From a plasmid: a stretch of DNA of 64,000 nucleotides. Positions 10,901 through 45,436 of the stretch are shown in pieces. The translations under genes and the position numbers were made by a program. Under the pieces are notes generated by a model. It saw only the letters and a list, made by a program, of their open reading frames with translations. It ran no database searches and was not told the origin of the DNA. The stretch lies in the sequence record CP080654.1, one strand, 5' to 3'. The first letter of the stretch is position 1; the number at the start of each line of letters is the position of its first letter.

Positions 10901-11254
10901 GGTGGTGTGGCGGGCGACAAGCCGAAATTCGTCAAAGAGATTATTGAGCGACTCAACAGCCTGTTTGGTGAGGCAACGCCGATCCAGGATCAGGTGGCCT
11001 TCGTGAATCAGATCTTTTCAATCGCCGGCGAAAGCGATGTGGTGATGGCTCAGGTGGAAAGTAACACCCGCGAACAGGCCATGAAAGGCAATTTGCCCGG
11101 CGCTGTTCAGCAAGCGGTGGTTCGTGCTTTGTCCAGTCATCAGAAGCTGGCAACCCAAGTGCTCAAGTCTGACCGTCAGGGCATGACCGCATTGGTTGAT
11201 ATGGTGTATGACCTGCTGCGCGAAGGCAAAGACATCGATCTGGGTATGGATTAA
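7997..11254 (+). CDS. hsdR: Type I restriction enzyme R subunit HsdR; 3' end abuts/overlaps an ISL3-family IS
   Basis: 1085 aa; DEAH helicase motif VIIDEAHNSQTG; Walker A GSGKTST; follows hsdS by 1 nt. Confidence 0.85.
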   Translation: MQSAAHQEKHFQQYIIDRLVEQGWKLGDSKFYDTERAVYPEDLESWIKTSGQQEKWDKLERLNGAKTLEVLMDRLDKALEKQGTMQVLRQGFSIAGCGLIEMTEAAPEDKRNAAVIERYQANILRVVPELKYHPAREFAIDLVLFINGLPVATVELKTDFTQSCEAAMDQYRNDRLPYDAKTKRREPLLTFKRGAVVHFAMSDSEIMMATKLDGENTFFLPFNKGRKDESGTVHAGNPPGEIKADGTQEYPVAYFWEAVCQPDAWLRIFHSFVYVEKKDVVDIQGNWSKKETLIFPRFHQWTAVNQMLTDARENGAGMTYLCDHSAGSGKTSTISWTAHDLVKLREDNGDSVFNSVIIVTDRNVLDGQLQDAVKQIDHQFGVIAAIDRQKSSKSKSKQLSEALLSGTPIVVVTIQTFPYAMEAIITDKALKGKNFAVIIDEAHNSQTGSTAAKLQAALGMSGQGKMSTMTVDELLEQLQKSRARPDNISYFAFTGTPKHSTLMLFGRPTDPSQPASNDNPPQAFHLYTMRQAIEEKFILDVLKGYVPYKTAFNLSKQLEDSKRVSGKAAKRALAQWMSLHPTNVTQKVQFIVEHFTKNVAHRLDGKAKAMVVTSSRAAAIRYKKAFDRYIEQHSEYGFIHSLVAFSGKMTGKQVMHQDDSEFKDDVFIVDENEEFTEQSMNPDVQGQDLRFAFDRPEYRVMLVADKFQTGFDQPKLVAMYVDKKIANHVEIVQTFSRLNRTAPGKDEVFIIDFVNDPENVRQAFTTYDKGAHIDEVQDLNVVYEIKERLDEHGLYDEKDLAAFKEARFKTIRDITHTKSPQHKALYAATAGATALYNDKMKMLRDGMATWEAAFEKARAKGDEAGMKSADHHQDEYAEQIKALIGFKSDLGRFCRTYSYIAQLIDFGDPELENFAAFAKLLQKRLQHEAPETVDLTGLVLTGFDINARSDNAEDEGETPVLQPVGAGGGGVAGDKPKFVKEIIERLNSLFGEATPIQDQVAFVNQIFSIAGESDVVMAQVESNTREQAMKGNLPGAVQQAVVRALSSHQKLATQVLKSDRQGMTALVDMVYDLLREGKDIDLGMD

Positions 11255-17445: not shown

Positions 17446-17679
17446 ATGATGAGAACTGTATCCATTTTTAAAAACGGCAATAACCGCGCCATTCGTCTGC
17501 CCCGCGATCTGGATTTTGAGGGAGTGAGCGAGCTGGAGATCGTCCGGGAAGGGGACAGCATTATTTTGCGTCCCGTCCGGCCGACCTGGGGCTCGTTCGC
17601 GCAGTTCGAGAAGGCAGACCCGGACTTTATGGCGGAGCGCGAGGACGTTGTCAGCGACGAAGGACGATTTAACCTGTGA
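17446..17679 (+). CDS. vapB: VapB antitoxin (AbrB/MazE-type; VagC-like)
   Basis: 77 aa SpoVT/AbrB-like N-terminus; stop overlaps vapC start (ATGA). Confidence 0.85.
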   Translation: MMRTVSIFKNGNNRAIRLPRDLDFEGVSELEIVREGDSIILRPVRPTWGSFAQFEKADPDFMAEREDVVSDEGRFNL

Positions 17680-18092
17680 ACAAGACCTATATGCTCGACA
17701 CCTGTATCTGCTCGTTCATCATGCGCGAGCAGCCGGAAGCCGTCCTGAAGCGCCTGGAGCAGGCGGTGCTGCGCGGCCAGCGCATCGTTGTCTCGGCCAT
17801 CACTTATTCTGAAATGCGCTTCGGGGCCACCGGCCCGAAGGCCTCCCCGCGCCACGTCGAGCTGGTCGACGCGTTCTGCGCCCGCCTCGATGCCATCCTG
17901 CCCTGGGATCGCGCTGCGGTGGACGCCACCACGGAGATTAAGGTGGCGCTGCGAATGGCCGGGACGCCGATCGGCCCGAACGACACGGCCATTGCCGGGC
18001 ACGCCATCGCCGCCGGTGCCGTGCTGGTGACGAATAATACGCGGGAATTTGAGCGGGTACCGGGTCTTGTGCTGGAAGACTGGGTAAGATAA
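17676..18092 (+). CDS. vapC: VapC PIN-domain toxin (VagD-like)
   Basis: 138 aa; PIN acidic residues (MLDTCIC..., NNTREFERV). Confidence 0.85.
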   Translation: MNKTYMLDTCICSFIMREQPEAVLKRLEQAVLRGQRIVVSAITYSEMRFGATGPKASPRHVELVDAFCARLDAILPWDRAAVDATTEIKVALRMAGTPIGPNDTAIAGHAIAAGAVLVTNNTREFERVPGLVLEDWVR

Positions 18093-19767: not shown

Positions 19768-20191
19768 CATGGGACTGATGACACGCATTGCCGATAAAAC
19801 CGGCGCGCTCGGCAGCGTCGTTTCCGCGATGGGCTGCGCCGCCTGCTTTCCAGCCCTCGCCAGCTTCGGCGCGGCCATCGGGCTGGGCTTCTTGAGCCAG
19901 TACGAGGGACTGTTCATCAGCCGCCTGCTGCCGCTGTTTGCCGCGCTGGCCTTCCTGGCGAACGCGCTGGGTTGGTTCAGTCATCGGCAATGGCTGCGCA
20001 GTCTGCTCGGCATGATCGGCCCGGCCATCGTGTTTGCGGCCACGGTCTGGCTGCTCGGCAACTGGTGGACGGCGAACCTGATGTACGTCGGCCTGGCCTT
20101 GATGATTGGGGTGTCGATCTGGGACTTCGTGTCGCCGGCGCATCGCCGTTGCGGACCGGACGGCTGCGAACTCCCCGCCAAGCGCTTGTGA
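19768..20191 (+). CDS. merC: Mercury transport protein MerC
   Basis: MGLMTRIADKTGALGSV...GCAAC matches Tn21 MerC. Confidence 0.9.
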
Positions 20192-21937
<1,746 letters not shown>

Positions 21938-21954
21938 GGACAAGGAGGTGTGCG

Positions 21955-22317
21955 ATGAGCGCCTACACGGTATCGCAACTGGCCCATAACGCTGGGGTGA
22001 GCGTACATATCGTGCGCGACTACCTGGTGCGCGGCTTGTTACGGCCGGTGGCCTGCACCACGGGCGGCTACGGCGTGTTCGACGATGCGGCCTTGCAACG
22101 GCTGTGCTTCGTGCGCGCGGCCTTCGAGGCGGGTATCGGCCTGGATGCCCTGGCGCGGCTGTGCCGTGCGCTCGACGCAGCGGACGGCGCACAAGCCGCA
22201 GCGCAGCTTGCCGTGCTGCGCCAGTTGGTCGAGCGGCGGCGCGCGGCGTTGGCCCATCTGGACGCGCAACTGGCCTCCATGCCAGCCGAGCGGGCGCACG
22301 AGGAGGCATTGCCGTGA
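21955..22317 (+). CDS. merD: MerD co-regulator
   Basis: MerR-like HTH, 120 aa, Tn21-type order. Confidence 0.85.
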
Positions 22318-22550
22318 ACGCCCCTGACAAACTGCCGCCCGAGACGCGCCAACCCGTTTCCGGCTACCTGTGGGGTGCGCTGGCCGTGTTGACCTGCCCC
22401 TGCCATCTGCCGATTCTCGCCGCCGTGCTGGCCGGGACGACCGCCGGTGCCTTCCTTGGCGAGCATTGGGGTGTTGCCGCGCTCGCGCTGACCGGCTTGT
22501 TCGTTCTGGCCGTAACGCGGCTGCTGCGCGCCTTCCGGGGCGGATCATGA
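22314..22550 (+). CDS. merE: MerE (GTG start)
   Basis: 78 aa with CPCH motif; overlaps merD stop. Confidence 0.8.
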
Positions 22551-25164: not shown

Positions 25165-26037
<873 letters not shown>

Positions 26038-26724: not shown

Positions 26725-27564
26725 TCATTTGTTACCCATCAACACGGGTAATTCCACGAGAATATCCTCTCGTGCTTTAGACCCGCCGGGAATATCGGAC
26801 TTTTCCTTTCCTATTTCCAATCGGGCGAAAACAACTTGCCGTCCGTTTTTTTCAGCCCAGCCCACGAACCAGCCCTGCGGACGACTTTCATTTATCTTGC
26901 CGTTATTGTCCCGAAGCCAGCCGCTGCCGCTTTTTCCATGTACAGCCCATCCTTCGGCTGCCTGGTACTGCGGGATTGTGGCATACGCCATGTCATAAGC
27001 CGCTTCGGATACAGGCAGCTTATGCGCGACAAAGCGTAGAAGAAACTGAATTTGCTCCTTGGGAGATATGGTGAGCGACGACATCAGCCATGACTGGGTC
27101 AAGCCGTTATGCTTCCCCGAGTCACCGGAAACATCTTGATTACCGTACTCAAATTTCTTTACGTATTCCGTGAACCGATCAACTCCCAGACGGCTTGTTA
27201 ATTGCTGCGAGAACTAGACAACAGAGTCGCTTTGCCATAGCGCCGGATAGACTTGTTTGTATGTGCGATCTCTCGGAGACGGGTTGTATTCCGGCTTCAA
27301 TTCCCACGTAGGTGATTTTGGCGACTGCAAGATTCCACTATCAAACCCCATGATTGCCAATGGAAGTTTAAAAGACGAGCACGGAGACACACGACGGGCA
27401 CATTCTCCGGTCTCATATAAGGTATTTCCGGTAATGGCGTCTGCGATGATGGTGCATTTAAGCGTTTCAACCTCATCAGAAGCCACGGAACTGATTGGGA
27501 GAGTGGCGGAAACGAACACCAACATATGCAGCAGCAAAATTTTTTTCATCAAGGTATCCTTCAT
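26725..27564 (-). pseudogene. blaOXA-9: blaOXA-9 with in-frame TAG (Trp to stop)
   Basis: Full OXA-9 sequence, but ...QSDSVV-TAG-FSQQLTSRLGVDRFTEY; stop at ~27217-27219 where TGG is expected; ORF track shows two pieces. Confidence 0.85.
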
Positions 27565-28545: not shown

Positions 28546-31443
28546 ATGTCACGACGCCATATTTTCACCGAACGGCAGCGAGCAGCGCTGTTCGATCTGC
28601 CCACGGACGAACTGTCGCTACTGAAGTTCTACACGCTGGGCGATGATGACCTGGAAAACATTAGGCAGCGCCGCAGACCGGAAAACAGGATTGGCTTTGC
28701 CCTGCAACTTTGTGCCTTACGATATCCGGGCCGTGCACTGGCTCCTGGTGAGATGATCCCGCGTGAAGTCCTTTCCTTCGTCGGTGCTCAGCTTGGAGTT
28801 CCGGCTGATGCGCTTCTCACTTATGCCACACGGCGCCAAACCCGTCAGCAGCACATGGACACGCTGCGCGAAATTTACGGCTACAAGACCTTCACGGGCC
28901 GTGGTGCCCGTGATCTGCGGGAGTGGACTTTCGGCCAGGCCGAAGATGCCAGATCAAACGAGGATCTTGCTCATCGTTTTATTGTGCGGTGTCGGGAAAC
29001 TTCCACCATTCTGCCCGCAGTATCGACAATCGAGCGCTTGTGCGCGGATGCTCTGGTCGCCGCTGAGTGGCGGATTGAAACGCGGATTGCGGAAAATTTA
29101 ACAGCGGATGTTCGCGATCACCTGGACAAACTTCTGAGTGAAATGCTCGCCGGCAATATCAGTCGTTTCATCTGGCTTCGCAACTTCGAGGTTGGTAACA
29201 ACTCGGCTGCTGCTAACCGTTTGCTCGACAGGCTCGAATTTCTGCGTACCCTGAATATCAATCATAGTGCTTTGGCCAGCATACCTGCCCATCGCATTGC
29301 CCGGCTGCGTCGGCAGGGTGAACGCTACTTCACCGACGGTTTGCGTGACATCACTTCGGACCGCCGCTGGGCGATCCTTGCCGTCTGTGTTGTGGAGTGG
29401 GAAGCGGCGATTGCTGATGCCATAGTCGAAACCCATGACAGGATCGTAGGAAAAACCTGGCGGGAAGCGAAGCGCCAGCATGACGAAACAATTTCCGGCT
29501 CTAAAGCCACACTCACGGATACGATCCGTACCTTCACCGCGCTGGGAGCTTCGTTGCTTGAGGCCCGCAGTGACGGAACCCCGCTGGAGATGGCTGTCGC
29601 CAGTTCGGTTGCATGGGACCGGCTCGCTCAACTGGTAGCGACAGGGACTCAACTCAGCAACACGCTAGCCGATGAGCCTCTTGCATATGTCGGGCAGGGA
29701 TACCATCGCTTTCGTCGTTATGCGCCCCGCATGTTGCGCTGTCTGAAGCTCGAAGCCGCGCCGGTCGCCGGACCATTGGTAGCAGCAGCTTTGTCGATCG
29801 GAGAGATGAAAGGTGTTGCATCGCCAGAAAGGCGTTTCCTGCGGCCCAGCTCCAAATGGAACCGTCATTTACGAGCTCAGGAAAAAGGAGATACCCGTCT
29901 TTGGGAAGTGGCGGTACTCTTTCACCTCCGGGATGCTTTTCGTTCCGGAGATGTCTGGCTCGCTCATTCGCGCCGCTATGGTGACCTCAAGCAGGTACTG
30001 GTGCCGATGATCGCGGCGCAGGAAAATGCAAAACTGGCCGTGCCTTCCAACCCACAGGATTGGCTGGCAGACAGAAAGGCGCGACTCACGATCGCTCTTA
30101 AGCGGCTGGCCCGGGCTGCCCGTAACGGCACTATTCCGCACGGTAGCATAGAAGATGGAACGTTGCGGATCGACAGGTTGACAGCAGACGTGCCGGATGG
30201 TGCCGAGGCACTCATACTGGATCTGTATCGCCGAATGCCGTCCGTTCGGATTACCGACATGCTGCTTGAAGTTGATGCAGCCCTTGGTTTCACAGATGCG
30301 TTTACCCATCTGAGAACCGGGGCTCCATGTCGCGACCGGATCGGTCTGCTCAACGTCCTGCTCGCTGAAGGGCTCAATCTGGGCCTGCGTAAGATGGCGG
30401 AAGCTACAAACACGCATGATTACTGGCAGCTCTCACGCCTTGCCCGCTGGCATGTTGAAAGCGAAGCCATGAACCAGGCATTGGCAATTGTGGTGGCCGC
30501 GCAGGGTAAACTGCCGATGTCACGCGTCTGGGGGATGGGCACGTCAGCATCGAGCGATGGTCAGTTTTTCCCGACAGCGCGGCATGGCGAAGTCATGAAC
30601 ATGGTCAATGCCAAATATGGTTCTGTTCCCGGCCTCAAAGCGTATACTCACGTAAGCGACCAGTTCGCGCCATTCGCTTGTCAGTCGATCCCGGCGACCG
30701 TGAGCGAGGCACCGTATATTCTCGATGGACTACTGATGAACGAGGTCGGTCGCCATGTTCGCGAACAGTATGCCGATACAGCAGGATTCACCGACCATTT
30801 GTTCGGAGCCAGTAGCCTGCTCGGCTACAATCTCGTTCTGCGAATCAGGGATCTGCCATCGAAGCGGTTGTACGTATTTAATCCCGATACGACCCCCAGG
30901 GAGTTACGCAAGTTGGTAGGTGGAAAAGCCCGGGAGGATCTTATCGTTGCGAACTGGCCTGATATTTTCCGTTGTGCCGCGACGATGACCGCTGGCAAAA
31001 TCAGGCCCAGCCAACTCCTGCGCAAGCTCGCTTCTTACCCACGACAAAACAACCTTGCAGTTGCGCTTCGTGAAGTTGGTCGTATTGAACGGACCCTTTT
31101 CATTATTGAGTGGATCCTGGATACGGACATGCAGCGGCGTGCTCAGATCGGTCTTAACAAGGGAGAGGCCCACCATGCGCTCAAAAATGCGCTCCGTATC
31201 GGGAGGCAGGGGGAAATTCGCGATCGCACGACAGAGGGGCAGCACTACCGAATCGCTGGGCTCAATTTATTGACTGCGGTGATCATTTACTGGAATACCG
31301 TCCATCTTGGTCATGCCGTCACGGAGCGGCGGAACGAAGGGTTGGATGTTCCCCCTGAATTTCTTCCCCACATATCCCCATTGGGCTGGGCGCACATTCT
31401 ACTGACTGGCGAATATCTTTGGCCCAAGGAACCGAAAGCTTAG
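28546..31443 (+). CDS. tnpA: Tn3-family transposase TnpA (Tn5403-like); its IR removed by IS26 9 bp upstream
   Basis: 965 aa; MSRRHIFTERQRAALFDLPTDE... aligns to the Tn3 TnpA N-terminus; C-terminal ...SPLGWAHILLTGEYLW. Confidence 0.85.
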   Translation: MSRRHIFTERQRAALFDLPTDELSLLKFYTLGDDDLENIRQRRRPENRIGFALQLCALRYPGRALAPGEMIPREVLSFVGAQLGVPADALLTYATRRQTRQQHMDTLREIYGYKTFTGRGARDLREWTFGQAEDARSNEDLAHRFIVRCRETSTILPAVSTIERLCADALVAAEWRIETRIAENLTADVRDHLDKLLSEMLAGNISRFIWLRNFEVGNNSAAANRLLDRLEFLRTLNINHSALASIPAHRIARLRRQGERYFTDGLRDITSDRRWAILAVCVVEWEAAIADAIVETHDRIVGKTWREAKRQHDETISGSKATLTDTIRTFTALGASLLEARSDGTPLEMAVASSVAWDRLAQLVATGTQLSNTLADEPLAYVGQGYHRFRRYAPRMLRCLKLEAAPVAGPLVAAALSIGEMKGVASPERRFLRPSSKWNRHLRAQEKGDTRLWEVAVLFHLRDAFRSGDVWLAHSRRYGDLKQVLVPMIAAQENAKLAVPSNPQDWLADRKARLTIALKRLARAARNGTIPHGSIEDGTLRIDRLTADVPDGAEALILDLYRRMPSVRITDMLLEVDAALGFTDAFTHLRTGAPCRDRIGLLNVLLAEGLNLGLRKMAEATNTHDYWQLSRLARWHVESEAMNQALAIVVAAQGKLPMSRVWGMGTSASSDGQFFPTARHGEVMNMVNAKYGSVPGLKAYTHVSDQFAPFACQSIPATVSEAPYILDGLLMNEVGRHVREQYADTAGFTDHLFGASSLLGYNLVLRIRDLPSKRLYVFNPDTTPRELRKLVGGKAREDLIVANWPDIFRCAATMTAGKIRPSQLLRKLASYPRQNNLAVALREVGRIERTLFIIEWILDTDMQRRAQIGLNKGEAHHALKNALRIGRQGEIRDRTTEGQHYRIAGLNLLTAVIIYWNTVHLGHAVTERRNEGLDVPPEFLPHISPLGWAHILLTGEYLWPKEPKA

Positions 31444-31531
31444 GGTGTCATTTCGCCCTCAGCCGGAACCGACCCCTTTAAGTGATACCATTTTAAGCAG
31501 TACCACTTAAATGTTACCATCAGGACAAAAA
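31444..31531 (+). promoter_or_regulatory. Probable res site between tnpA and tnpR
   Basis: Position only; short AT-rich intergenic region. Confidence 0.3.
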
Positions 31532-32152
31532 ATGTTCGTTTTTGGTTACCTCCGGGCATCAACATCAGAGCAGGATGCCAGCCGGGCAAAAAATGCACTG
31601 AAGGCATTTGCAAACCAACATGGCCACCGTATTGCTGGCTGGTATATCGATAATGTCTCCGGTACGACAATGAACCGCCCTGAACTGATCAGGCTTCTTG
31701 GTGATGCGGAACCTGGTGATGTGATCCTCATTGAACAGGTCGACAGGCTTACTCGCCTCGATGATGCTGGCTGGGAGACACTAAGAAAGCAAATTACCGA
31801 CAAGCAGCTGGCCATCGTCAGTCTTGATCTACCGACCAGCCATCTGGCGCTATCCAGCACAGTAAGTGATGACTTTACCCGAAGCATGCTGAAGGCCGTA
31901 AATGGAATGCTGCTGGATATGCTGGCCGCTATTGCCCGAAAAGATTACGAAGATCGTCGACGTCGTCAGTCAGAGGGAATCAGTAAGGCGAAAGCTGAAG
32001 GGAAATACCGGGGCCGGGTGGCTGATGCGCAGAAACATGAACTGATACGTACCCTGCGCCTGGTCAACGGAAAATCGCTGCGCGAAACAGCTCGCCTGGC
32101 TGGCGTTTCTAAAATGACAGTGATTCGGGTCTGCTCCAGCGCTGATAAATAA
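31532..32152 (+). CDS. tnpR: Serine resolvase TnpR (Tn5403-like)
   Basis: 206 aa; N-terminal catalytic YLRASTSEQD, C-terminal HTH. Confidence 0.85.
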   Translation: MFVFGYLRASTSEQDASRAKNALKAFANQHGHRIAGWYIDNVSGTTMNRPELIRLLGDAEPGDVILIEQVDRLTRLDDAGWETLRKQITDKQLAIVSLDLPTSHLALSSTVSDDFTRSMLKAVNGMLLDMLAAIARKDYEDRRRRQSEGISKAKAEGKYRGRVADAQKHELIRTLRLVNGKSLRETARLAGVSKMTVIRVCSSADK

Positions 32153-32661: not shown

Positions 32662-33013
32662 ACGGCTAATACCTGAGATGAATAAGTCAACAACCAACGG
32701 ATATCCGTCAACGAGATCAGTTTAACCAATTTATTGAACACTCATAACCCAAATAATCATGCGACTGCGCGCTGCCACGGAAACGCGTAAAAATCAGAAC
32801 TGAAAGAGGGAAGACGGATGACGGACCAGAAACACAATGATGCCTATTCGCGCTGGTTAATTGAATAGGCAGACAGAGAAGAAAAGGAAGAATTCTCGCG
32901 TTCGTTCAGCAGACTGAAATGCATCCTGTTAAATATCGTGGTGTTCGGTATCATTTCACTGGGCGTTTGCCTGGCTGTTCAGCAGGTGACGCATTGACAT
33001 CCACCCCGGCACA

Positions 33014-33212
33014 CAGGGCGAGAGCATGAGTTGATTTTTTGTTGTTTTTCATGATGAGATAGGTGGCTCGGCCAATGCTGAACAAATTTGAGATCGCATT
33101 TTCAGCACACCCCTGTACAAAATACGAGCAGAAAATGCAATTGCACCTTGGGATGACAGTGGTTAAATTTTTTTGGTTAACATGTCAGTAACTCATGCTC
33201 TCGCCCTGAGTT
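33014..33212. mobile_element. ~200-bp MITE-like element with ~20-bp terminal inverted repeats
   Basis: CAGGGCGAGAGCATGAGTT (33018) and AACTCATGCTCTCGCCCTG (33193), no internal ORF; related solo copy at 45244-45269. Confidence 0.4.
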
Positions 33213-33317
33213 CGCACCTTCCGCTACTTCGACAGTTGTGTAAAAAACCGTGCTCGTTGATAACCAGAAGGTGCGGTACTGAAAAACTATTGCTTGCAAC
33301 AATTTGCTCAAACGTCA

Positions 33318-33677
33318 CTATGGCTTTTCATGGTTTTTAACCCATTTTTGCATCTGGTCGATTTCTGGTTGCTGGGCTTTGATAATATCTTCTGCCAGCT
33401 TTCGCATTTCAGGATCCTTACCAAATTTAAGCTGCGTTTCAGACATTTGAATGGCACCTTGATGGTGGGCAATCATCCCTTTTGCAAAGGCAACATCTGG
33501 ATCAGAGGACATCACTCCTGCCATCATGTCGTTATGCATACTTTTCATACCAGACATCAACTCTTGAGAAGCTGGAGACATGGAATGGTGATCGCCCATC
33601 GGCATGGTTTTGTCAACCGCAAAAACAGCAACAGGAGACATTAATAGGGCGGTCAGTATCAATATTTTTTTGTTCAT
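33318..33677 (-). CDS. DUF305-family secreted protein (metal-resistance associated)
   Basis: Signal peptide MNKKILILTALLMSPVAVFA; His-rich GMIAHHQGAI motif. Confidence 0.6.
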   Translation of the reverse strand: MNKKILILTALLMSPVAVFAVDKTMPMGDHHSMSPASQELMSGMKSMHNDMMAGVMSSDPDVAFAKGMIAHHQGAIQMSETQLKFGKDPEMRKLAEDIIKAQQPEIDQMQKWVKNHEKP

Positions 33678-33848
33678 TTTACTACCTCTTAAAGAAAACT
33701 CGTTCGCTGAGAAGTATTTACTTATCTCACTTCAAGTTACCTGACTATTGGACTTTGGCCTACAAGAAACTCGAATTATTCAGAGTGTAGATGGCGTTGT
33801 TTCCCAAATCAACCATCAAGCCACGACTGCCCCAGCCCCAAGTGACCG

Positions 33849-34094
33849 TTACACTCGGCGCTTTCTGACAGGCAGACCAAGGGGGTTCAGTTTGTTGATT
33901 GCACCAACATACGCCATCACTTCCCCTACCTGACCGTTGTATGTTCGCAGACTGATTTTGCCCGTCATCAACTGCTTGAACCGATACATCGCCGTCTCTG
34001 CCTGCGAGCGACGGTGATATCCCGATATCTTCTTCCAGTGCACCAGCCCTTCCTTGCGCATCACCAGCACCGCCTCATTTACGCCCCAGGGCAA
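33849..34094 (-). pseudogene. IS903-group (IS5 family) transposase C-terminal fragment
   Basis: ...HRRSQAETAMYRFKQLMTGKISLRTYNGQVGEVMAYVGAINKLNPLGLP resembles the IS903 Tnp C-terminus. Confidence 0.55.
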
Positions 34095-34180
34095 GATCGC
34101 GAACGTTTTTTGACCAAGAAAAACAGGTTTGACCCTGCGATCCAGCTGTGATCTTATGCTCCTTTTTCAGGAGTGCCTTC

Positions 34181-35287
34181 ATGTCTATTGATGCTGTTTT
34201 TGCTCAGTTTTTCGATGATATTCCCGACCCTCGCCAGCATGCCAAGATTTATTATCCTTTCTACGATGTCCTGTTTCTCACCGTCTGCGCAGTGATAGGT
34301 GGCGCAGACGGGTGGGAAGATATTGAAGATTTCGGTGAGGTTCATCTTCCTTGGTTTCAATCCAAGGGGCTGTTTAAAAATGGTATTCCTGTCCATGACA
34401 CCATCGCCAGGATCATCTCCGGTATCAAACCAGAGCCGTTTCAGGCCGCGTTCGTACGTTGGACTCAAGCCATCAACCAGCACACCGAAGGCGCCTTGGT
34501 CGCTATCGATGGCAAAACCCTGCGCAGTTCCTATAACCGTGAAGATCGAACGTCGACCATTCACATGGTAAGCGCCTATGCCGCCGCTAATAAACTGGTG
34601 CTCGGACAGATAAAAACCGACGCCAAGTCCAATGAAATCACCGCCATTCCCGACTTGTTGGCGTTGCTCGACATCAAAGGCTGCCTGGTATCCATCGATG
34701 CGATGGGGTGCCAAACCGAGATCGCCGAGACCATCCTCCAGCAAAGTGGCGATTACTTGTTAGCCGTCAAAGGCAACCAGCCCAAGTTGTTCGAGGCGGT
34801 CCGGCAAGCCCTGGCCCCGCTGGCGGCTACCCCATTATGCGCAGCAACGATGACTCTTGATAAGGCTCATGGGCGCATCGATGGTCGTGAGTACCATATC
34901 ATGGCGGCGGGTGAGTTAGCCGCCCAGTTTCCTCATTGGGAACAGTTGCGCAGTATTGGCGTGGCCATCTCTTATCGCATTGAAAAAAGGGAAAAAATCA
35001 CTATTGAACAGCGTTATTACATCAGTTCCAAAGCACTGACGCGGGATGAGTTTGCACGATCGGTGCGTGGGCACTGGGCCATCGAAAATAGCCTGCACTG
35101 GGTGCTGGACGTCACGATGGGCGAGGACGATTGCCCAATTTATCGCGGTGATGCCGCAGAGATCCTTGCGTGCATCCGGCACATGGGGCTGAACATGCTC
35201 AGGGCTGAAACTTCACGCAAAGCGAGCATCAGACGGAAGCAAAAGATTGCAGGAATGAGCAGTGAATACCTGGAAAAGGTACTCAAT
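34181..35287 (+). CDS. tnp: ISAs1-family transposase, 3' end interrupted by the Tn4401a insertion
   Basis: HWAIENSLHWVLDVTMGEDD motif; ORF reads through the 5-bp TSD into the Tn4401 IR; its natural C-terminus (...LNAGLNKLGEF*) resumes after 45195. Confidence 0.7.
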
Positions 35288-35641
35288 GGGGGGGTAAGCG
35301 GGAACCCCAGAAAATTCCGCCATTCCGCATTGTGGAATTTTTTGGGGGGGTGGTCCGCGGCATGACGACCCGCCAAAGGCTACCGCATCTATCTGAGGCG
35401 CTGTGGCGCGACGCTGAAACCCCGGGGAATTCCGCTACTCCAGTTCCAGGTCCGCAATAGTTCGTCCAGGTCGGGTGGCGTACGCCGGAAACGCCGATTT
35501 TTCCGCAACCGTTTCTGCGTTGTCGGCAAGGTGGTCTCAGAGAGCGCTCAAGAAGCGGTTTTTCTCGTATGTTTAGCTACGGTGGCCTAGGAGCCTGCGC
35601 GGCAGAAGCCAAATCGGCGGAAGATCGAGGACGATACGGGG

Positions 35642-36961
35642 ATGGCTGCCAGTTACCTTCCTTACCGACCCGACCAATCCTATCTGCTGCCCCCTTCTCT
35701 GGGAGAGTGGCTACCTGAAGGGCATCTTGCCTACTTCATCAGCGAGACTGTCGATACGCTGGACTTGAGCGCATTCCACGCCCGGTATGCCGGCGGTGGT
35801 CCGGGCAATCAGCCGTTTCATCCGGCGATGATGGTCAAAGTGCTGATCTATGGTTACGCGAGCGGCGTCTTCTCTTCGCGCAAACTAGCCAGGAAGCTGT
35901 ACGAGGATGTCGCGTTGCGTGTGCTGGCCGCTGGAAACTTCCCGGCCCACCGCACGCTGAGTGACTTCCGTGCCCTACACCTGACCGAGCTTGAGAATTT
36001 GTTCGTTCAGGTGGTGCAACTGGCGCGCGAATGTGGGCTGGTGAAGCTTGGCACGATCGCGGTCGACGGCACCAAGGTAAAAGCCAACGCCAGCCGCCAC
36101 AAGGCGATGAGCTATAAGCGCATGAAGCCGGCCGAGGACGAATTGCATTGCGAGATCAAGGCGCTGCTTGATCGCGCCAAGGCTACCGACGACCAGGAGC
36201 GTAACGAGCCGGAGCTGGACATTCCTGCCGAGATTTCTCGCCGCGAGAAGCGCCTGGAGGCGATCCAGGCGGCAAAGGCGCGCCTGGAAGCGCGCCAGCG
36301 TGAAGCGGACCAGGCCCGGGGGCGCAGCGAAGACGATGGCCGCCGGCCTCGCCATCCGGATGGCTCGGACAAGGGCGGTGGCTCGTACAAACGCGAGTTT
36401 GGTGTGCCGGATGACCGTGATCAGGAAAGCTTCACCGATCCGGACAGCCGGATCATGAAACACGCCGGTGGTGGCTCCGAGCAGAGCTACAACGGGTACA
36501 CAGCGGTCGATGCCGAGCACCAGATCATCGTGGCGGCGGAGTTGACCAACTGCGCCGCGGACAGTCAGGCGCTGCTGGGCATGCTGGCAGCAGTTCAGGC
36601 CAACACCGGAGAAATGCCGGCCCAGACGCTGGCGGATGCGGGATTCCGTAGTGAGGCTGTTCTGGCAAAGGTCGCCGATCACCACGGCGATGTCATCGTT
36701 GCCCTCGGCCGCGAGGGACGTGAAGATGCCAAGGTCAATGCCAAGACCCATCCGCATACGGCGGCGATTGCGGCGAAATTGAAAACGGAGCAAGGCGATG
36801 CAGCTTACCGCCGGCGCAAGTCGATCGTGGAGGCTCCGAATGGTTGGATCAAGGCGGTGATGGGATTGCGTCAGTTCAGCATGAGGGGCCTGGACAAGGT
36901 GCAAGCCGAGTGGAAGCTCGTCTGCATGGCGCTAAATCTGAGGCGAATGGCGTATCTGTGA
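35642..36961 (+). CDS. tnp: ISKpn6 transposase (IS1182 family)
   Basis: 439 aa; position downstream of blaKPC as in Tn4401. Confidence 0.85.
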   Translation: MAASYLPYRPDQSYLLPPSLGEWLPEGHLAYFISETVDTLDLSAFHARYAGGGPGNQPFHPAMMVKVLIYGYASGVFSSRKLARKLYEDVALRVLAAGNFPAHRTLSDFRALHLTELENLFVQVVQLARECGLVKLGTIAVDGTKVKANASRHKAMSYKRMKPAEDELHCEIKALLDRAKATDDQERNEPELDIPAEISRREKRLEAIQAAKARLEARQREADQARGRSEDDGRRPRHPDGSDKGGGSYKREFGVPDDRDQESFTDPDSRIMKHAGGGSEQSYNGYTAVDAEHQIIVAAELTNCAADSQALLGMLAAVQANTGEMPAQTLADAGFRSEAVLAKVADHHGDVIVALGREGREDAKVNAKTHPHTAAIAAKLKTEQGDAAYRRRKSIVEAPNGWIKAVMGLRQFSMRGLDKVQAEWKLVCMALNLRRMAYL

Positions 36962-37210
36962 GGGCGAAGGTTAAATGGGGCGGCTCAAATGCACCCCAGT
37001 CGTCATAACACGCCGCGCGCCGCAAGATTGGTATCCTTGGCGCCGACGCCTTGCCAATTGCAGAGAGCGCCGCCGCCATCGTCAGTGCTCTACAGAAAAC
37101 CGGTCACACGGCTCTGCCGCGCAGACTCCTAGCCTAAATGTGACAGTGGTTGGTAATCCATGCCGCCCGCAAGGGCGGCGGTGGTGGGCCAATAGATGAT
37201 TTTCAGAGCC

Positions 37211-38092
37211 TTACTGCCCGTTGACGCCCAATCCCTCGAGCGCGAGTCTAGCCGCAGCGGCGATGACGGCCTCGCTGTGCTTGTCATCCTTGTTAGGCGC
37301 CCGGGTGTAGACGGCCAACACAATAGGTGCGCGCCCAGTGGGCCAGACGACGGCATAGTCATTTGCCGTGCCATACACTCCGCAGGTTCCGGTTTTGTCT
37401 CCGACTGCCCAGTCTGCCGGCACCGCCGCGCGGATGCGGTGGTTGCCGGTCGTGTTTCCCTTTAGCCAATCAACAAACTGCTGCCGCTGCGGCGCAGCCA
37501 GTGCAGAGCCCAGTGTCAGTTTTTGTAAGCTTTCCGTCACGGCGCGCGGCGATGAGGTATCGCGCGCATCGCCTGGGATGGCGGAGTTCAGCTCCAGCTC
37601 CCAGCGGTCCAGACGGAACGTGGTATCGCCGATAGAGCGCATGAAGGCCGTCAGCCCGGCCGGGCCGCCCAACTCCTTCAGCAACAAATTGGCGGCGGCG
37701 TTATCACTGTATTGCACGGCGGCCGCGGACAGCTCCGCCACCGTCATGCCTGTTGTCAGATATTTTTCCGAGATGGGTGACCACGGAACCAGCGCATTTT
37801 TGCCGTAACGGATGGGTGTGTCCAGCAAGCCGGCCTGCTGCTGGCTGCGAGCCAGCACAGCGGCAGCAAGAAAGCCCTTGAATGAGCTGCACAGTGGGAA
37901 GCGCTCCTCAGCGCGGTAACTTACAGTTGCGCCTGAGCCGGTATCCATCGCGTACACACCGATGGAGCCGCCAAAGTCCTGTTCGAGTTTAGCGAATGGT
38001 TCCGCGACGAGGTTGGTCAGCGCGGTGGCAGAAAAGCCAGCCAGCGGCCATGAGAGACAAGACAGCAGAACTAGACGGCGATACAGTGACAT
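37211..38092 (-). CDS. blaKPC-2: Carbapenemase KPC-2
   Basis: 293 aa [12 protein letters not shown]...; KDDKHSEAV (His at the position where KPC-3 has Tyr). Confidence 0.95.
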
Positions 38093-38379
38093 CAACGATA
38101 TTCCTTGTTTGAAGGTGGAGCTAGGTGTAGCGGCCGGATGTAATCAGGCCGCTACAGCTGGGATTATCACCGAGCTTGAAAAACGAATCAGGTCGGCGTT
38201 CATGGGTCGGCCACCTCGCCTGACCTCGGCATCCACGTTACGGACGGCCTCAGGAAGTCCTGGCCAAGCCCCGACTATTGGGGCGCGAAGATAGCACCGA
38301 GGGTACGCCGGTGTCAACACCAACTGAAAACTGACCCACTTTACCCCTGAATCACCAAAGTAATACTGACCCACCTGGA

Positions 38380-40205
<1,826 letters not shown>

Positions 40206-40287
40206 ACTAGCCCAGGTGGATCAGTTTTACTTCGCTGGGGTGGGTCAGTTTTACACTGCTGCTAACACGGAACCGCTGAAAATTCCG

Positions 40288-43200
40288 TCACTCCAGTTCC
40301 AGGCCTGCGACGATCGCATCGAGATCGATCGTCTTGCCGCTGCTTTGAAAGGTGTAGTGCCCGTTGAGCAGGATGTGCCGCCATGCCGCAGGCGAAATTT
40401 TTGTGATGAGTGCCAGCGCCTTGCTGTTGCCGGCCGCCTCGTACTTGGTCACCAGCCGCGACAAGATTGCCGAGTTGTAGAAAATGATCGTGTTGGCGAT
40501 CAGCCGTGCGCACTGGTTGCTGATCTCGATTTCAATGTCGGTGCGACCGGTCAGTTCCTTCTTACCGCCGACCTGGGCAATGGCCGAGCGTAGCTGATGG
40601 TAGGACTCGAGGCGATTTTGCGAGCGGTGCACGTTGCGTTCCAGTTGCGGATCGCGCAGGTAGCGAAGCGTGTAGATGCTGCGGATGAGCTTGTCGAACT
40701 CGAAGATCGCGCGCCGCGTCGGGTTCGTCGTGGTGTAGGTGCACAGCTTGCGGATCAGCGTGCCCTGCGTCATTTCCTTCAGCCCGAGTGTGGCGACGAT
40801 CCGGTCGATGTTCGGCTTCTCGCGATGGATGAGATCGCAGTCGATTTTCCCGACTGGCCGAATCAGGCACGCCTGATACTGTGCTGGATCGTCAGCGCAG
40901 TAGAGTTCTTTCAATTGCGCGTTGAGGTCGGTGAAGCGCGGCTCGAACCGCCGGCCAAACCAATGCAGGATGGCGAAGTTGGCCTTGTTGACGCTGTGCA
41001 TGTCGCCGGTGATCGCGGTCGGCATGATGTCCGACGTGTTGCGATACCAGATGTCGAACACGTGGTGGGCCTCGTAGTCGTGCGCGCCGATCAGGTAGCC
41101 GTTGAGCGGGATGTGGTTGCACAGCAGCGTGTAGGCGACCACGCCCTTGCCGCGCCCGAAGTACTTGCGCGAATAGCGCGCCTTCACGGTCGGCCGTTCG
41201 ACGCTGAATTTCTGCCCGTCGACGGCACCGTACAGCGTTTCGAGGTCGAACGAGTAGTATGGGAAGATCGGTAGCGTGGCGATGGCGTTGCTGATGCAGT
41301 CGTTGGCCGCGTGCAGCGTTGCCTGGCGCAGGTACTGCTGGTAGCCGCTATCCAGCACGTGGTACGGGATGTCGCTGGTGCGCGCCATGACGTGGTTGCC
41401 GTGGTTCATCGCTTGCGCGATGATGACCGCCATCAGGCTGTCAGCGTCGGCGACCTTCTTCGCGTAGCGCGGCTGCATGGGCGTGAACGCCGACAGAAAC
41501 TTGCACTCGTCGTTGACGAAGCGAAACACGTCGGCCACGTCGCAGAACGGAAGCTTCTCGTAGAATGCCTTTTCGCGCGCTTTCTCATTCTCGCTCTTGG
41601 GCTTGCGCCAGGTCAGTTTCTGCGTGTCCTTGTTGTATTCGAGGTGCGTCAGCTTGCCCTGTTTCAGCTCGCGGTTGAACGCCAGCCACTGCGTGCGCAG
41701 TTCGGCAGTCAGCGCATCGAGTTGGGCATGGACGGGTTGCTGCAGGAAGGGGATCTCCATTTTTGCGAGCACATCGATCTTCCTGTCCATCTCAACCAGT
41801 TCATCTGAGAAGTGCCGGTGTTGCAGGCTGTCGTCGAGGTAGAGTTCACCCGATTGGAGACGCTTCCTGATCTGGCGGTACAGCCAGAACTCGTAGCGGT
41901 CAGCGTGCAGGCCGGTTGGTTTACCGTCGGCGTCGAAGGTCAGCAGGTACGGCCGCAAGCGTTTCGGAAGTGTCGCCGCGGGCCACTCGTCGAGTGGCCG
42001 TTGCGACAGCCGCTGCTGCTTGGCAAAAACACCTTTGGCCCAGGCCAGCGCGGCAAGCCATGGACTGTCTGGATTGGAGCCGGAGAGGTCGAGCGCAACG
42101 TACAGTGGACGAAGATGGCGGCGCATGCGGTCGGCCAGCCCGTCCACCGCCTGCCACTGCAAGGCCAGCTTGCTCGCCGGCTTCACGCTCATACGCTGCG
42201 CCGTGGTTTGCAGCGTATCGCGAGGCATGATCTTGTAGGCGCGCTGCCGCACCTCGCCGAAGGGCGTGGGATCGGCCACGCTATCATCAACGTAGAGTGA
42301 CAGCAGGCGGCCTACCCGCGGCGTTTCCTGCTGACGGCGCACCTGCTCGTCGGCAAAGGATTGTTTGGCACCAGCGCTGCTTTCGTCCTCCAACTGCTTC
42401 ATGTGGTACGCCATCGCATCGACCAGGTTGTCGGAGAGCTGCCGGTAGCGTACCCAGGCATAGCACAGCAGGTAGAGTTGGGTCTGATCGGCCTTCAGAT
42501 TGCGCAGGTCGTGGACGGTGTAGAAGTTTGCCAGGCTCGCGTAGTACAGCAGGTTCTGCTGCGAGACGTCGAGTTTAGGCAGCAGTGTCTTGGCGATTGC
42601 GTGCAGCGGCTCCAGCGTGGCGCGCTTTTCGCGCTCGCGGACCATCTGGCGCCAGCCGAAATTCTTGGCGTCCTGCTTGAGCGCCGCCAGTTGCGACAGG
42701 GTGTCATCACGGACCAGAAGCTGGCTCAGCGCGGCCTTGGCAGATTCGTCCAACGCTTGCTCCAGCAGATTGCCCAGGCGCCGGCGCTCGGCGGATAGCG
42801 TTTCGCTGACCAACTCTTGCAAGGTCGTATAGCCGGGCCGGATAATCTTGTGCTCATTGAGCCAGACGATCAGCTCGGCGGCGACGAACCCCGGCGTTAC
42901 GTCACGCCGCACGGTCCGTGCGGCCTGCTGCTCGAGCTGCGGCAGGAAGGCGGCCGACCACGGCCAGTAGCCGAATAGTTTGGCGATCTGCTCGCGCTGG
43001 GTGTAGCGTTCATGCTTGGTGATCGCCTTGGGTTCGAACACCTCGCCGTGGAAATAGCGGCTCAGCACGAAAGCGCAATCGTCCTCGACTTCGTCCCAGT
43101 CGAAACTGAAGAAGGCATGCTTGGCCTTGAAGTAGCCGATCTGCAAGAGGCAATAGACCTTGGCATGAAGACTGGGCCGGCTGTTGGCAAGCGCCAACTC

Positions 43201-43317
43201 GGTTTCTGTCACAGCCAGATATTCCAGCTGCTGCGCATCATCGAACTCCGGCAGGCCATACAAGGCCTCCTGTTCGGCGTCGGATAGGACGCTGAGTAGC
43301 TTGTTCTTCTTGCTCAT
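40288..43317 (-). CDS. tnpA: Tn4401 Tn3-family transposase TnpA
   Basis: 1009 aa; divergent from tnpR across a 109-bp res region. Confidence 0.9.
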   Translation of the reverse strand: MSKKNKLLSVLSDAEQEALYGLPEFDDAQQLEYLAVTETELALANSRPSLHAKVYCLLQIGYFKAKHAFFSFDWDEVEDDCAFVLSRYFHGEVFEPKAITKHERYTQREQIAKLFGYWPWSAAFLPQLEQQAARTVRRDVTPGFVAAELIVWLNEHKIIRPGYTTLQELVSETLSAERRRLGNLLEQALDESAKAALSQLLVRDDTLSQLAALKQDAKNFGWRQMVREREKRATLEPLHAIAKTLLPKLDVSQQNLLYYASLANFYTVHDLRNLKADQTQLYLLCYAWVRYRQLSDNLVDAMAYHMKQLEDESSAGAKQSFADEQVRRQQETPRVGRLLSLYVDDSVADPTPFGEVRQRAYKIMPRDTLQTTAQRMSVKPASKLALQWQAVDGLADRMRRHLRPLYVALDLSGSNPDSPWLAALAWAKGVFAKQQRLSQRPLDEWPAATLPKRLRPYLLTFDADGKPTGLHADRYEFWLYRQIRKRLQSGELYLDDSLQHRHFSDELVEMDRKIDVLAKMEIPFLQQPVHAQLDALTAELRTQWLAFNRELKQGKLTHLEYNKDTQKLTWRKPKSENEKAREKAFYEKLPFCDVADVFRFVNDECKFLSAFTPMQPRYAKKVADADSLMAVIIAQAMNHGNHVMARTSDIPYHVLDSGYQQYLRQATLHAANDCISNAIATLPIFPYYSFDLETLYGAVDGQKFSVERPTVKARYSRKYFGRGKGVVAYTLLCNHIPLNGYLIGAHDYEAHHVFDIWYRNTSDIMPTAITGDMHSVNKANFAILHWFGRRFEPRFTDLNAQLKELYCADDPAQYQACLIRPVGKIDCDLIHREKPNIDRIVATLGLKEMTQGTLIRKLCTYTTTNPTRRAIFEFDKLIRSIYTLRYLRDPQLERNVHRSQNRLESYHQLRSAIAQVGGKKELTGRTDIEIEISNQCARLIANTIIFYNSAILSRLVTKYEAAGNSKALALITKISPAAWRHILLNGHYTFQSSGKTIDLDAIVAGLELE

Positions 43318-43426
43318 GGCCCGTTCTTGCTATCTTGAGGTTTCGTAGAAACATGGGGCATTTTCGATTCTACTGAAATAATCGTTATTATCGCGTTACT
43401 CGCTTTTCGAATCGCAACCTGTCCAT

Positions 43427-45142
43427 ATGAAAACGGGCCAGACTACGGCTTCGAGTTCTACCCCAGTCGGCTTTCCCGATGCGGATTCGCTGGCTGCCTT
43501 GCGCGGCTGGTACGCGGGACTCAGCTCTCGCGCGGCCGTTGAACACTACCTGGCGGCACGCAAGGCCGCCGGTCAATCAGCGCGAGGGATGCTGGGGCAT
43601 ATCCGCCGCCAGCTCATCGTTTTCGCCAACAGCCGCCACCGGCCGGATCTGGCCGACGTGTTCCAGCACGCCCCCGAAGAGCGACAGGGGCGCGCGGGTG
43701 CCGTCGAACGCGCGATCCGGCTCTTGCCCACGCTGCCGGCGCCGAAGCCCCAGATCAGCGACAGCATCGACCAGTGGCTGTCTCCGAGGACCGTCAGGGC
43801 ACTGCAGGCGTACGGTATCCACACCCTCTCGGCGCTGACCGTGCGCATTCCCCGCCGGCGTGGCTGGTGGAAAGCCATCGAGGGACTCGGCATGACAGGC
43901 GCCCGGCAGGTCGAGGCTTTCTTTGCCGCACATCCGCAGCTCACCGAGCGCGCCCGGGCCCTGATCCCGATTATTCAGCCCAGCGGCATCGTGCCGTGGG
44001 AGCAGTTGCGTCTGCCGAACGAAGTCGACGGCTCGCAGGGCAATTTCCGGGCCCCGCGCAACGCTTGCACGCTGAATGCGACCAACGACTACGAGGCCGT
44101 GCAGGCCTGGCTGGCGCTGCACGAGACTGTCGCCACACAGCGCGCCTATCGCAAGGAGGCTGCGCGGCTAATCCTGTGGGCCATCGTCGAACGCGGACGG
44201 GCGCTATCATCCCTGACCACGGACGATGCAATCGCGTACCGGGCCTTTGTCCGGCACCCGACCCCGCGCGAGCGTTGGGTGGGGCCACCTCGACCACGCG
44301 ATTCGGTGGAATGGCGCCCCTTCTCGGGCGGCTTGTCCGCACGCTCGGCAGCGTATGCGCTGACGGTGCTCTCGGCGCTGTTCCGGTGGCTCATCGAGCA
44401 GCGCTATGTGCTGGCCAACCCTTTCGCCGGCGTCAAGGTACGCGGTCACGCCTTGCGGCCCGCACTGGATACGGCGCGAGGCTTTACCGAGGGAGAATGG
44501 CTACTGCTGCGCGCCATTGCAGACGGCCTGGAATGGTCCTACGGCTGGTCCGAGCCGGCAGCACAACGCCTGCGCTTCATGCTCGACTTCGGCTATGCCA
44601 CGGGCCTGCGCGCTAGCGAACTGGTCGGCGCCGTCCTGGGTAATGTCCGCCTCGACGAGCACGGTGACCACTGGCTGCATTTGGTTGGCAAAGGTGGCAA
44701 ACCAGGTAAGGTGGCCTTGCCGCCGCTCGCGTATACGGCGCTGGACCAATACTTGGCACAGCGTCAACTGCCAGTCAGCCGGGAACGGTGGAATCCGAAA
44801 ACGCCCCTGGTGGGCAGTCTTGGGGAAGACGGTAATGCCGGCATCACCGGCCCTCACCTTTGGTGCGTGTTGCGAAGATTCTTTACGCAAGCCGCTGAGG
44901 CCATTGAGGCCGATCATCCGGTCGCCGCCGAAAAGCTGCGCCGTGCCACGCCTCATTGGATGCGTCACAGTCATGCCAGCCATGCGTTGGCCCGGGGAGC
45001 TCAGCTCACCGCGGTGCGCGACAACCTACGCCATGCGTCGATCGCCACGACGTCGATGTATTTGCATGGCGATGAGCTCGAGCGCGCCAGGCAGATGCGG
45101 CAGGCTTTTGGCGCTCGTCACGTCAAGCGAGGAGTCGACTGA
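43427..45142 (+). CDS. tnpR: Tn4401 resolvase/recombinase (large tyrosine-recombinase type)
   Basis: 571 aa; C-terminal R..HxxR..Y block (WMRHSHASHALARGA...SMYLHG). Confidence 0.85.
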   Translation: MKTGQTTASSSTPVGFPDADSLAALRGWYAGLSSRAAVEHYLAARKAAGQSARGMLGHIRRQLIVFANSRHRPDLADVFQHAPEERQGRAGAVERAIRLLPTLPAPKPQISDSIDQWLSPRTVRALQAYGIHTLSALTVRIPRRRGWWKAIEGLGMTGARQVEAFFAAHPQLTERARALIPIIQPSGIVPWEQLRLPNEVDGSQGNFRAPRNACTLNATNDYEAVQAWLALHETVATQRAYRKEAARLILWAIVERGRALSSLTTDDAIAYRAFVRHPTPRERWVGPPRPRDSVEWRPFSGGLSARSAAYALTVLSALFRWLIEQRYVLANPFAGVKVRGHALRPALDTARGFTEGEWLLLRAIADGLEWSYGWSEPAAQRLRFMLDFGYATGLRASELVGAVLGNVRLDEHGDHWLHLVGKGGKPGKVALPPLAYTALDQYLAQRQLPVSRERWNPKTPLVGSLGEDGNAGITGPHLWCVLRRFFTQAAEAIEADHPVAAEKLRRATPHWMRHSHASHALARGAQLTAVRDNLRHASIATTSMYLHGDELERARQMRQAFGARHVKRGVD

Positions 45143-45436
45143 ATTTTCATCATACGGAATGACGGAATTTTCTGGGATTCCCGCTTAGAACCCCTCAATG
45201 CTGGCCTCAACAAATTGGGTGAATTTTAACAATATGTTCACGCTCTCGCCCTGCCCCGGCACAGTCCGCTGAAGGAATGGCAGTTCCGTTCACCACATTT
45301 GCTAAGACATCAGGACTTACTTTGTAATCTGGAAGTACATCGAAGTTGCAACAATAGTACTCTATTGCGTGACGTAGATTCGTGACGTATAGTTACTGCA
45401 ACTTTTTTGTTTATAACTACCGTCAGGTACAAAATT

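Follow-up and report, generated by a model that had tools for sequence, protein, structure and literature searches.

We describe here the blaKPC transposon carried by a plasmid stretch of 64,000 nucleotides from sequence record CP080654.1, which was analysed at its full length and is called the window throughout. Positions 35288-45194 are read as an intact Tn4401a with blaKPC-2, inserted into the insertion sequence (IS) ISKpn31 and nested with it in a backbone of the pKpQIL type, a reading to which we give a probability of about 0.97. Carriage of blaKPC on Tn4401a in pKpQIL-type plasmids is a main vehicle of carbapenem resistance in Klebsiella pneumoniae clonal group 258, and recognising the transposon places the window within an epidemic resistance plasmid. 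The nested arrangement is already known and published; it is clinically important and holds no new biology. It was reportedly published by Partridge in 2014 and with TETyper in 2018, the content of the former being taken from papers that cite it.

Ends and length of the transposon

With both terminal repeats included, the element is 9,907 bp long. The two 39-bp repeats are imperfect, with 34 of 39 positions matching when 35288-35326 is compared with the reverse complement of 45156-45194, and the conserved core of the repeat was found at two sites only in the window, where shuffled sequences lead one to expect none. Immediately outside each repeat stands the pentamer TCAAT, read directly on both sides. 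The genes follow one another in the window as ISKpn6 transposase, blaKPC, istB, istA, tnpA and tnpR, as established from the open reading frames and from the annotation of pKPN101-IT over a stretch with 100% identity, and all six are full length. Since this is the order of Tn4401 read backwards, the transposon lies reversed in the window relative to its conventional tnpR-to-ISKpn6 direction, and the target duplication TCAAT reads ATTGA on its conventional strand.

The element together with 200-bp flanks was found with 100% identity in many plasmids annotated with Tn4401, KPC-2 or ISKpn31, and 616 records covered at least 80% of this query. The marks of a Tn3-family unit transposon, namely 39-bp inverted repeats, a 5-bp target duplication, an intact gene order and identity to a reference, were thus all found.

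Isoform and blaKPC allele

The Tn4401b of plasmid pKPC_CAV1741 (NZ_CP011656.1), which is bounded by the same terminal repeats and measures 10,006 bp, was used as the reference. A prefix of 7,019 bases and a suffix of 2,888 bases are identical to this reference, and because together they make up the 9,907 bp of the window element, the two differ only in that the window element lacks reference positions 7020-7118, a stretch of 99 bp that lies between istB and blaKPC. By definition Tn4401a lacks 99 bp upstream of blaKPC, just as pKpQIL does (PMC12211030), and it is to this isoform that the element is assigned on the grounds of its sequence.

A 701-nt query across the istB-blaKPC interval was searched against plasmid records, and one record of each length class was aligned with the window. 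The interval classes in plasmids were 800 bp (no deletion, isoform b), 732 bp (68-bp deletion) and 545 bp (255-bp deletion). In the resulting four-way alignment the window lacks exactly 99 columns, and this gap differs from both the 68-bp (d-like) and the 255-bp (e-like) gaps.

The blaKPC gene gives a 293-residue translation in which codon 272 is CAC (His), exceeds the NF012141 cut-off of 625 with a score of 684.8 bits, and is identical at the DNA level to records in which AMRFinderPlus calls blaKPC-2 at 100%. KPC-3 has Tyr at position 272; the gene is blaKPC-2. The sole difference within the transposon from pKpQIL-IT, which is annotated with KPC-3, lies at window position 37279 and changes codon 272 from CAC to TAC.

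The original prediction, a note made from the sequence of the stretch, had given the end coordinates, the 39-bp inverted repeats, the flanking TCAAT pentamers and the 9,907-bp span, all of which proved exact on re-reading. Its claim of isoform a was borne out by the alignment with Tn4401b that it had proposed, which shows the exact 99-bp deletion, and its blaKPC-2 call agrees with His272, with the NF012141 score and with the 100% identity to KPC-2 records.

Promoters upstream of blaKPC

The sequences of both P1 and P2 are kept in the window, and the missing 99 bp fall between them. The P1 hexamers are in part those reportedly described by Naas et al. 2012. Coordinates of single-nucleotide variants in P1 are given on the Tn4401b reference as T7152, A7153 and C7154 (PMC8547452), and these map onto the TTACAT of the window at 38143-38138; reference G6909, which has been called a P2 promoter position (PMC8547452), maps to 38286. 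P2 was recovered by a promoter scan with 10 of 12 matches, against 0.1 expected. Its -35 hexamer lies within the terminal repeat of ISKpn7 (38311-38339) and its -10 hexamer outside it, which argues that P2 is a hybrid promoter created by the insertion of ISKpn7.

Isoform a has been linked to higher KPC expression and higher carbapenem minimum inhibitory concentrations than the undeleted Tn4401b (PMC12211030, PMC8547452). This literature, from which promoter activity and expression level are drawn, points to a high-expression promoter configuration in the window.

RefSeq places a 79-residue 'hypothetical protein' (WP_004152395.1, 38144-38383, minus strand) over the promoter region of blaKPC and the junction of the deletion; its frame would fall in the 5' leader of the transcript from P2 and is probably an artefact of annotation.

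Insertion point of Tn4401a in ISKpn31

The insertion of Tn4401 falls after codon 369 of the ISKpn31 transposase gene and has moved the last nine codons (AGLNKLGEF) and the stop to 45200-45229. Joining 35287 to 45200 restores a 378-residue protein ending in ...EKVLNAGLNKLGEF. In its interrupted form the transposase continues for 25 codons within the end of Tn4401, up to a stop at 35365, and this is the 394-residue 'ISKpn31 family transposase' of RefSeq; the name ISKpn31 itself rests on RefSeq annotation (ISAs1-like ISKpn31 transposase). The original prediction had correctly placed the interruption in the 3' end of an ISAs1-family transposase gene, as seen from the score of the reconstructed protein (416.3 bits) and from an uninterrupted copy. 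It had estimated about 12 lost codons where there are nine and a stop, and it had the frame resuming after 45195; the frame does resume, and the exact point is 45200, past the second copy of the duplication.

The uninterrupted copy was obtained by scanning a 38-nt pattern spanning the reconstructed junction exactly across species-representative genomes, which gave one exact match, in Aeromonas popoffii CIP 105493. The 1,223-bp contig of this strain differs from the reconstruction by one mismatch and no gaps and has a single TCAAT, and TCAATTCAAT was not seen at the Tn4401 site in this uninterrupted ISKpn31. The A. popoffii copy therefore represents the empty site with one TCAAT, and hence it was the insertion that gave rise to the second copy.

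Among 72,556 plasmids, no uninterrupted ISKpn31 was found with the reconstructed empty site at 80% coverage or more. When a 201-nt junction query was searched against plasmids in distant mode, only relatives of ISAs12 were recovered, with about 90% identity across the junction. They align unbroken across it to about the right end of ISKpn31 (45253), and they come largely from Aeromonas; there are thus hints that ISKpn31 may be of Aeromonas origin.

ISKpn31 as a nested insertion

The target of Tn4401 is itself a nested insertion with p019 as its passenger, a point absent from the original prediction, as is the identity of the target as ISKpn31. The same decamer, CCCCGGCACA, adjoins both outer ends of ISKpn31. 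An empty backbone site was built by removing everything between the decamers together with one decamer, and the resulting 800-nt query was matched without a break by one plasmid from Klebsiella grimontii (100%) and one from K. quasipneumoniae (99.9%); the backbone without either insertion is represented by NZ_CP117735.1 (100%) and NZ_CP087582.1 (99.9%). From the duplication of CCCCGGCACA and the intact empty site it follows that a 2,328-bp ISKpn31 unit including p019 was inserted and that Tn4401a then entered ISKpn31. The extent of 2,328 bp is set by the 10-bp duplication and the empty site. An ISAs1-family transposase, terminal inverted repeats and a target duplication of about 10 bp were all found for ISKpn31.

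The literature lists ISKpn31 fragments on both sides of Tn4401, and p019 is described as the passenger gene of ISKpn31 (PMC6286996). The linked p019 is the basis of an 11,109-Da proxy for KPC in matrix-assisted laser desorption/ionisation time-of-flight (MALDI-TOF) mass spectrometry. ISKpn31 seems to be made up of three parts: a 195-bp piece (33014-33208) that resembles a miniature inverted-repeat transposable element (MITE), an 878-bp p019 passenger segment and a 1,255-bp core IS.

Sequences related to the right repeat (45236-45253) occur at three other places in the window, at 33014 (plus strand), 33191-33208 (minus strand) and 34087-34104 (plus strand), and the A. popoffii contig starts exactly at the left repeat of the core (34087). 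It is conceivable, though in our judgement rather unlikely, that ISKpn31 is a composite of a MITE-like piece, a captured p019 segment and an Aeromonas-resident core, which moved once as a 2,328-bp unit by means of its outermost repeats. Were this so, p019 as a marker for MALDI-TOF screening of KPC would be tied to blaKPC through one ancestral event only. Much of this was probably already described by Partridge in 2014.

Proposed course of events and alternative explanations

On this reading the nested structure arose in steps. ISKpn31 with p019 first entered the backbone, of type IncFII(K)/IncFIB, at a place between genes and duplicated CCCCGGCACA, after which Tn4401a, a member of the Tn3 family, transposed into ISKpn31 nine codons before the end of the transposase gene and duplicated ATTGA. 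Such nesting is the hallmark of the epidemic lineage of pKpQIL plasmids, so that this plasmid has inherited it and it does not represent a fresh event here. Transcription of blaKPC-2 would, going by the literature, proceed from P1 and P2, between which the 99-bp deletion has removed a segment.

The pentamers might instead be no footprint of transposition, Tn4401a having come by homologous recombination or plasmid fusion with TCAAT present by chance or already in tandem. By chance alone two pentamers would agree in about 1 of 1,024 cases, which taken alone is not negligible, and the arrangement in this plasmid was certainly inherited as a block, being identical in many records. Such inheritance is compatible with an ancestral transposition, however, and does not replace it, and the uninterrupted ISKpn31 has exactly one TCAAT with sequence continuous on both sides, as expected if a Tn3-family transposase had duplicated 5 bp. 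On the strength of this single TCAAT a chance origin of the target duplication is rejected, and the explanation as a whole is very improbable. Less probable still is that the element belongs to another isoform (b, no deletion; d, 68 bp; e, 255 bp; c, 215 bp; or h), its 9,907-bp length being a coincidence of other insertions and deletions. Before the alignment, a 99-bp difference in length was all that spoke for isoform a; the comparison with Tn4401b has since revealed one 99-bp gap at reference 7020-7118 and otherwise no difference, whereas the d-like and e-like records, aligned alongside, show gaps of their own. The exact comparison with Tn4401b together with the four-way alignment rules out isoforms b, d and e for the window element. 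Contexts of blaKPC other than Tn4401 are common: in many plasmids the match to the istB-blaKPC region is confined to the 267 bp nearest blaKPC. It could be proposed that blaKPC lies here in an element other than Tn4401 or in a truncated copy of it, such as is met in Tn1721- or IS26-type contexts, with the repeats and pentamers as mere remnants. The presence of all six genes at full length and of both 39-bp ends leaves this proposal scarcely credible, and it is ruled out by the collinearity of the whole 9,907 bp with the Tn4401b reference.

Nothing in the sequence contradicts the reading as Tn4401a nested in ISKpn31 within a pKpQIL-type backbone, and its scope is as follows. The extent of ISKpn31 was taken from the duplication and the empty site, the ends of ISKpn6 and ISKpn7 are only approximate, and the match to pKpQIL was made through pKpQIL-like records. 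Promoter use and activity, expression level and mobility, including competence for transposition, are drawn from the literature. What the analysis itself shows is how the element is built, what it is identical to, its deletion, its blaKPC allele and the two empty sites.

Genes and elements within Tn4401a

The coordinates of all features are collected in Table 1. NCBIfam scores exceeded the curated cut-offs for KPC and for the Tn3 transposase, IS21 IstA, IstB, IS1182 and ISAs1 transposase models. The protein annotated as TnpR has the domains Phage_integrase (PF00589) and DUF3701 (PF12482) above the gathering thresholds and also matches Xer-type tyrosine recombinase models. No family was above the cut-off in the NCBIfam search with TnpR, and no match to a serine resolvase was found in the Pfam and NCBIfam domain searches. 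By its domains TnpR is of the tyrosine-recombinase type, and its name misleads as to its chemistry. Target duplications were sought around ISKpn7 and ISKpn6 within Tn4401 and nothing unambiguous was found, so the boundaries of both elements are approximate.

Table 1. Coordinates of the transposon, its target, its genes and the left-hand plasmid cargo in the window
Feature	Position	Strand	Remarks
Tn4401a, complete, 9,907 bp	35288-45194	-	compared with the 10,006-bp Tn4401b of pKPC_CAV1741
39-bp terminal inverted repeat, ISKpn6 end	35288-35326	.	
39-bp terminal inverted repeat, tnpR end	45156-45194	.	pairs with 35288-35326
Tn4401 5-bp target duplication TCAAT, left copy	35283-35287	.	
Tn4401 5-bp target duplication TCAAT, right copy	45195-45199	.	
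ISKpn31 10-bp target duplication CCCCGGCACA, left copy	33004-33013	.	same decamer at 45254-45263
ISKpn31 10-bp target duplication CCCCGGCACA, right copy	45254-45263	.	adjoins 45253
ISKpn31, left portion	33014-35287	+	outer inverted repeat 33014-33031; up to the Tn4401 insertion point
p019 passenger gene, DUF305/CopM-like, 119 residues	33318-33677	-	Pfam DUF305, 73 bits; NCBIfam CopM, 123 bits
ISKpn31 transposase gene, codons 1-369	34181-35287	+	NF033564 ISAs1 family transposase, 416.3 bits (reconstructed protein)
ISKpn31, right end	45200-45253	+	displaced codons 45200-45229; right inverted repeat 45236-45253
ISKpn6 (IS1182 family)	35587-37132, approximate	+	20-bp inverted repeats
ISKpn6 transposase gene	35642-36961	+	NF033551 IS1182 transposase, 398.2 bits
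blaKPC-2, 293 residues and stop	37211-38092	-	NF012141 blaKPC, 684.8 bits
P1 promoter sequence	38138-38166	-	-35 TAATCC 38166-38161; 17-nt spacer; -10 TTACAT 38143-38138
Isoform-a deletion junction	38175-38176	-	reference 7020-7118 gone, -182 to -84 relative to the blaKPC ATG
P2 promoter sequence	38288-38317	-	-35 TTGACA; 18-nt spacer; -10 TATCTT
ISKpn7 (IS21 family)	38311-40268, approximate	-	inverted repeat including 38311-38339
istB	38380-39159	-	IstB helper model, 452.5 bits
istA	39156-40181	-	NF033546 IS21 transposase, 316.8 bits
Tn4401 tnpA, Tn3-family DDE transposase, 1,009 residues	40288-43317	-	NF033527, 855.8 bits; Pfam DDE_Tnp_Tn3, 373.7 bits
Tn4401 'tnpR', 571 residues, divergent from tnpA	43427-45142	+	record annotation 'Tn4401 family resolvase TnpR'
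IncFIB repB	1-897		pGR-1870 annotation
Type I restriction-modification system	~4656-11254		pGR-1870 annotation
ISKpn25	within 1-33000		pGR-1870 annotation
vapBC	~17449-18092		pGR-1870 annotation
IS1 and partial mer operon (merC, merA, merD, merE)	~19769-22550		pGR-1870 annotation
blaTEM-1	25165-26025		pGR-1870 annotation
blaOXA-9, broken, two pieces	~26725-27549		pGR-1870 annotation
IS26	within 1-33000		pGR-1870 annotation
Tn5403-like transposase and resolvase	28546-32152		pGR-1870 annotation

Plasmid context and comparison with known systems

Many conjugative IncFIB/IncFII plasmids of Klebsiella share with the window, at 100% identity, 25 kb on the left side and 18.8 kb on the right, several of them at the same coordinates. 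The cargo at positions 1-33000 was mapped from the annotation of pGR-1870, and the left side carries the usual pKpQIL cargo. The features expected of a pKpQIL-like context are present, namely ATTGA flanks, ISKpn31 beside p019 and a Tn5403 remnant, an IncFII(K)/IncFIB backbone and F-type tra genes.

For the comparison with pKpQIL, the plasmids pKpQIL-IT (NC_019155.1), pKPN101-IT (NC_019165.1) and pGR-1870 (NC_023905.1) were used as stand-ins for the original sequence (GU595196 / NC_014016). All three have the same 9,907-bp transposon with its 99-bp deletion, the same ATTGA duplication and the same insertion point in ISKpn31 as the window, and the neighbours typical of pKpQIL are also the same: p019, the Tn5403 remnant, IncFII repA and the tra genes. 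Over the compared region neither pKPN101-IT nor pGR-1870 differs from the window (100% identity). With pKpQIL-IT it is collinear over 23.8 kb, with four single-nucleotide polymorphisms and no gaps; one of the four is the KPC-2/KPC-3 codon, pKpQIL-IT having KPC-3 (Tyr272) and the window KPC-2 (His272), and the three others lie outside the transposon. Flanks of ATTGA/ATTGA correspond to pKpQIL (TETyper 2018), and the combination blaKPC-2-Tn4401a-ATTGA was present in 465 of 604 isolates in a UK outbreak study. The original prediction had named ATTGA as the pKpQIL duplication and suggested comparing the flanks with that plasmid; the TETyper statement and the collinearity with pKpQIL-IT uphold the first, and the four polymorphisms in 23.8 kb are the outcome of the second.

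ISKpn31 of the window resembles known copies in its ISAs1-family transposase and in its 1,255-bp core, which is 99.9% identical to the A. popoffii contig. It differs in being split by Tn4401a, so that its transposase loses the last nine residues and gains 25 from the Tn4401 end, and in its mobile unit of 2,328 bp, which takes in the passenger region with p019. The Tn4401b of pKPC_CAV1741 is identical to the window element at all 9,907 shared positions, blaKPC-2 included, but keeps the 99 bp (7020-7118) between P2 and P1; it sits in a Tn2-like element with a GTTCT/GTTCT duplication, whereas the transposon described here lies in ISKpn31 between copies of ATTGA.

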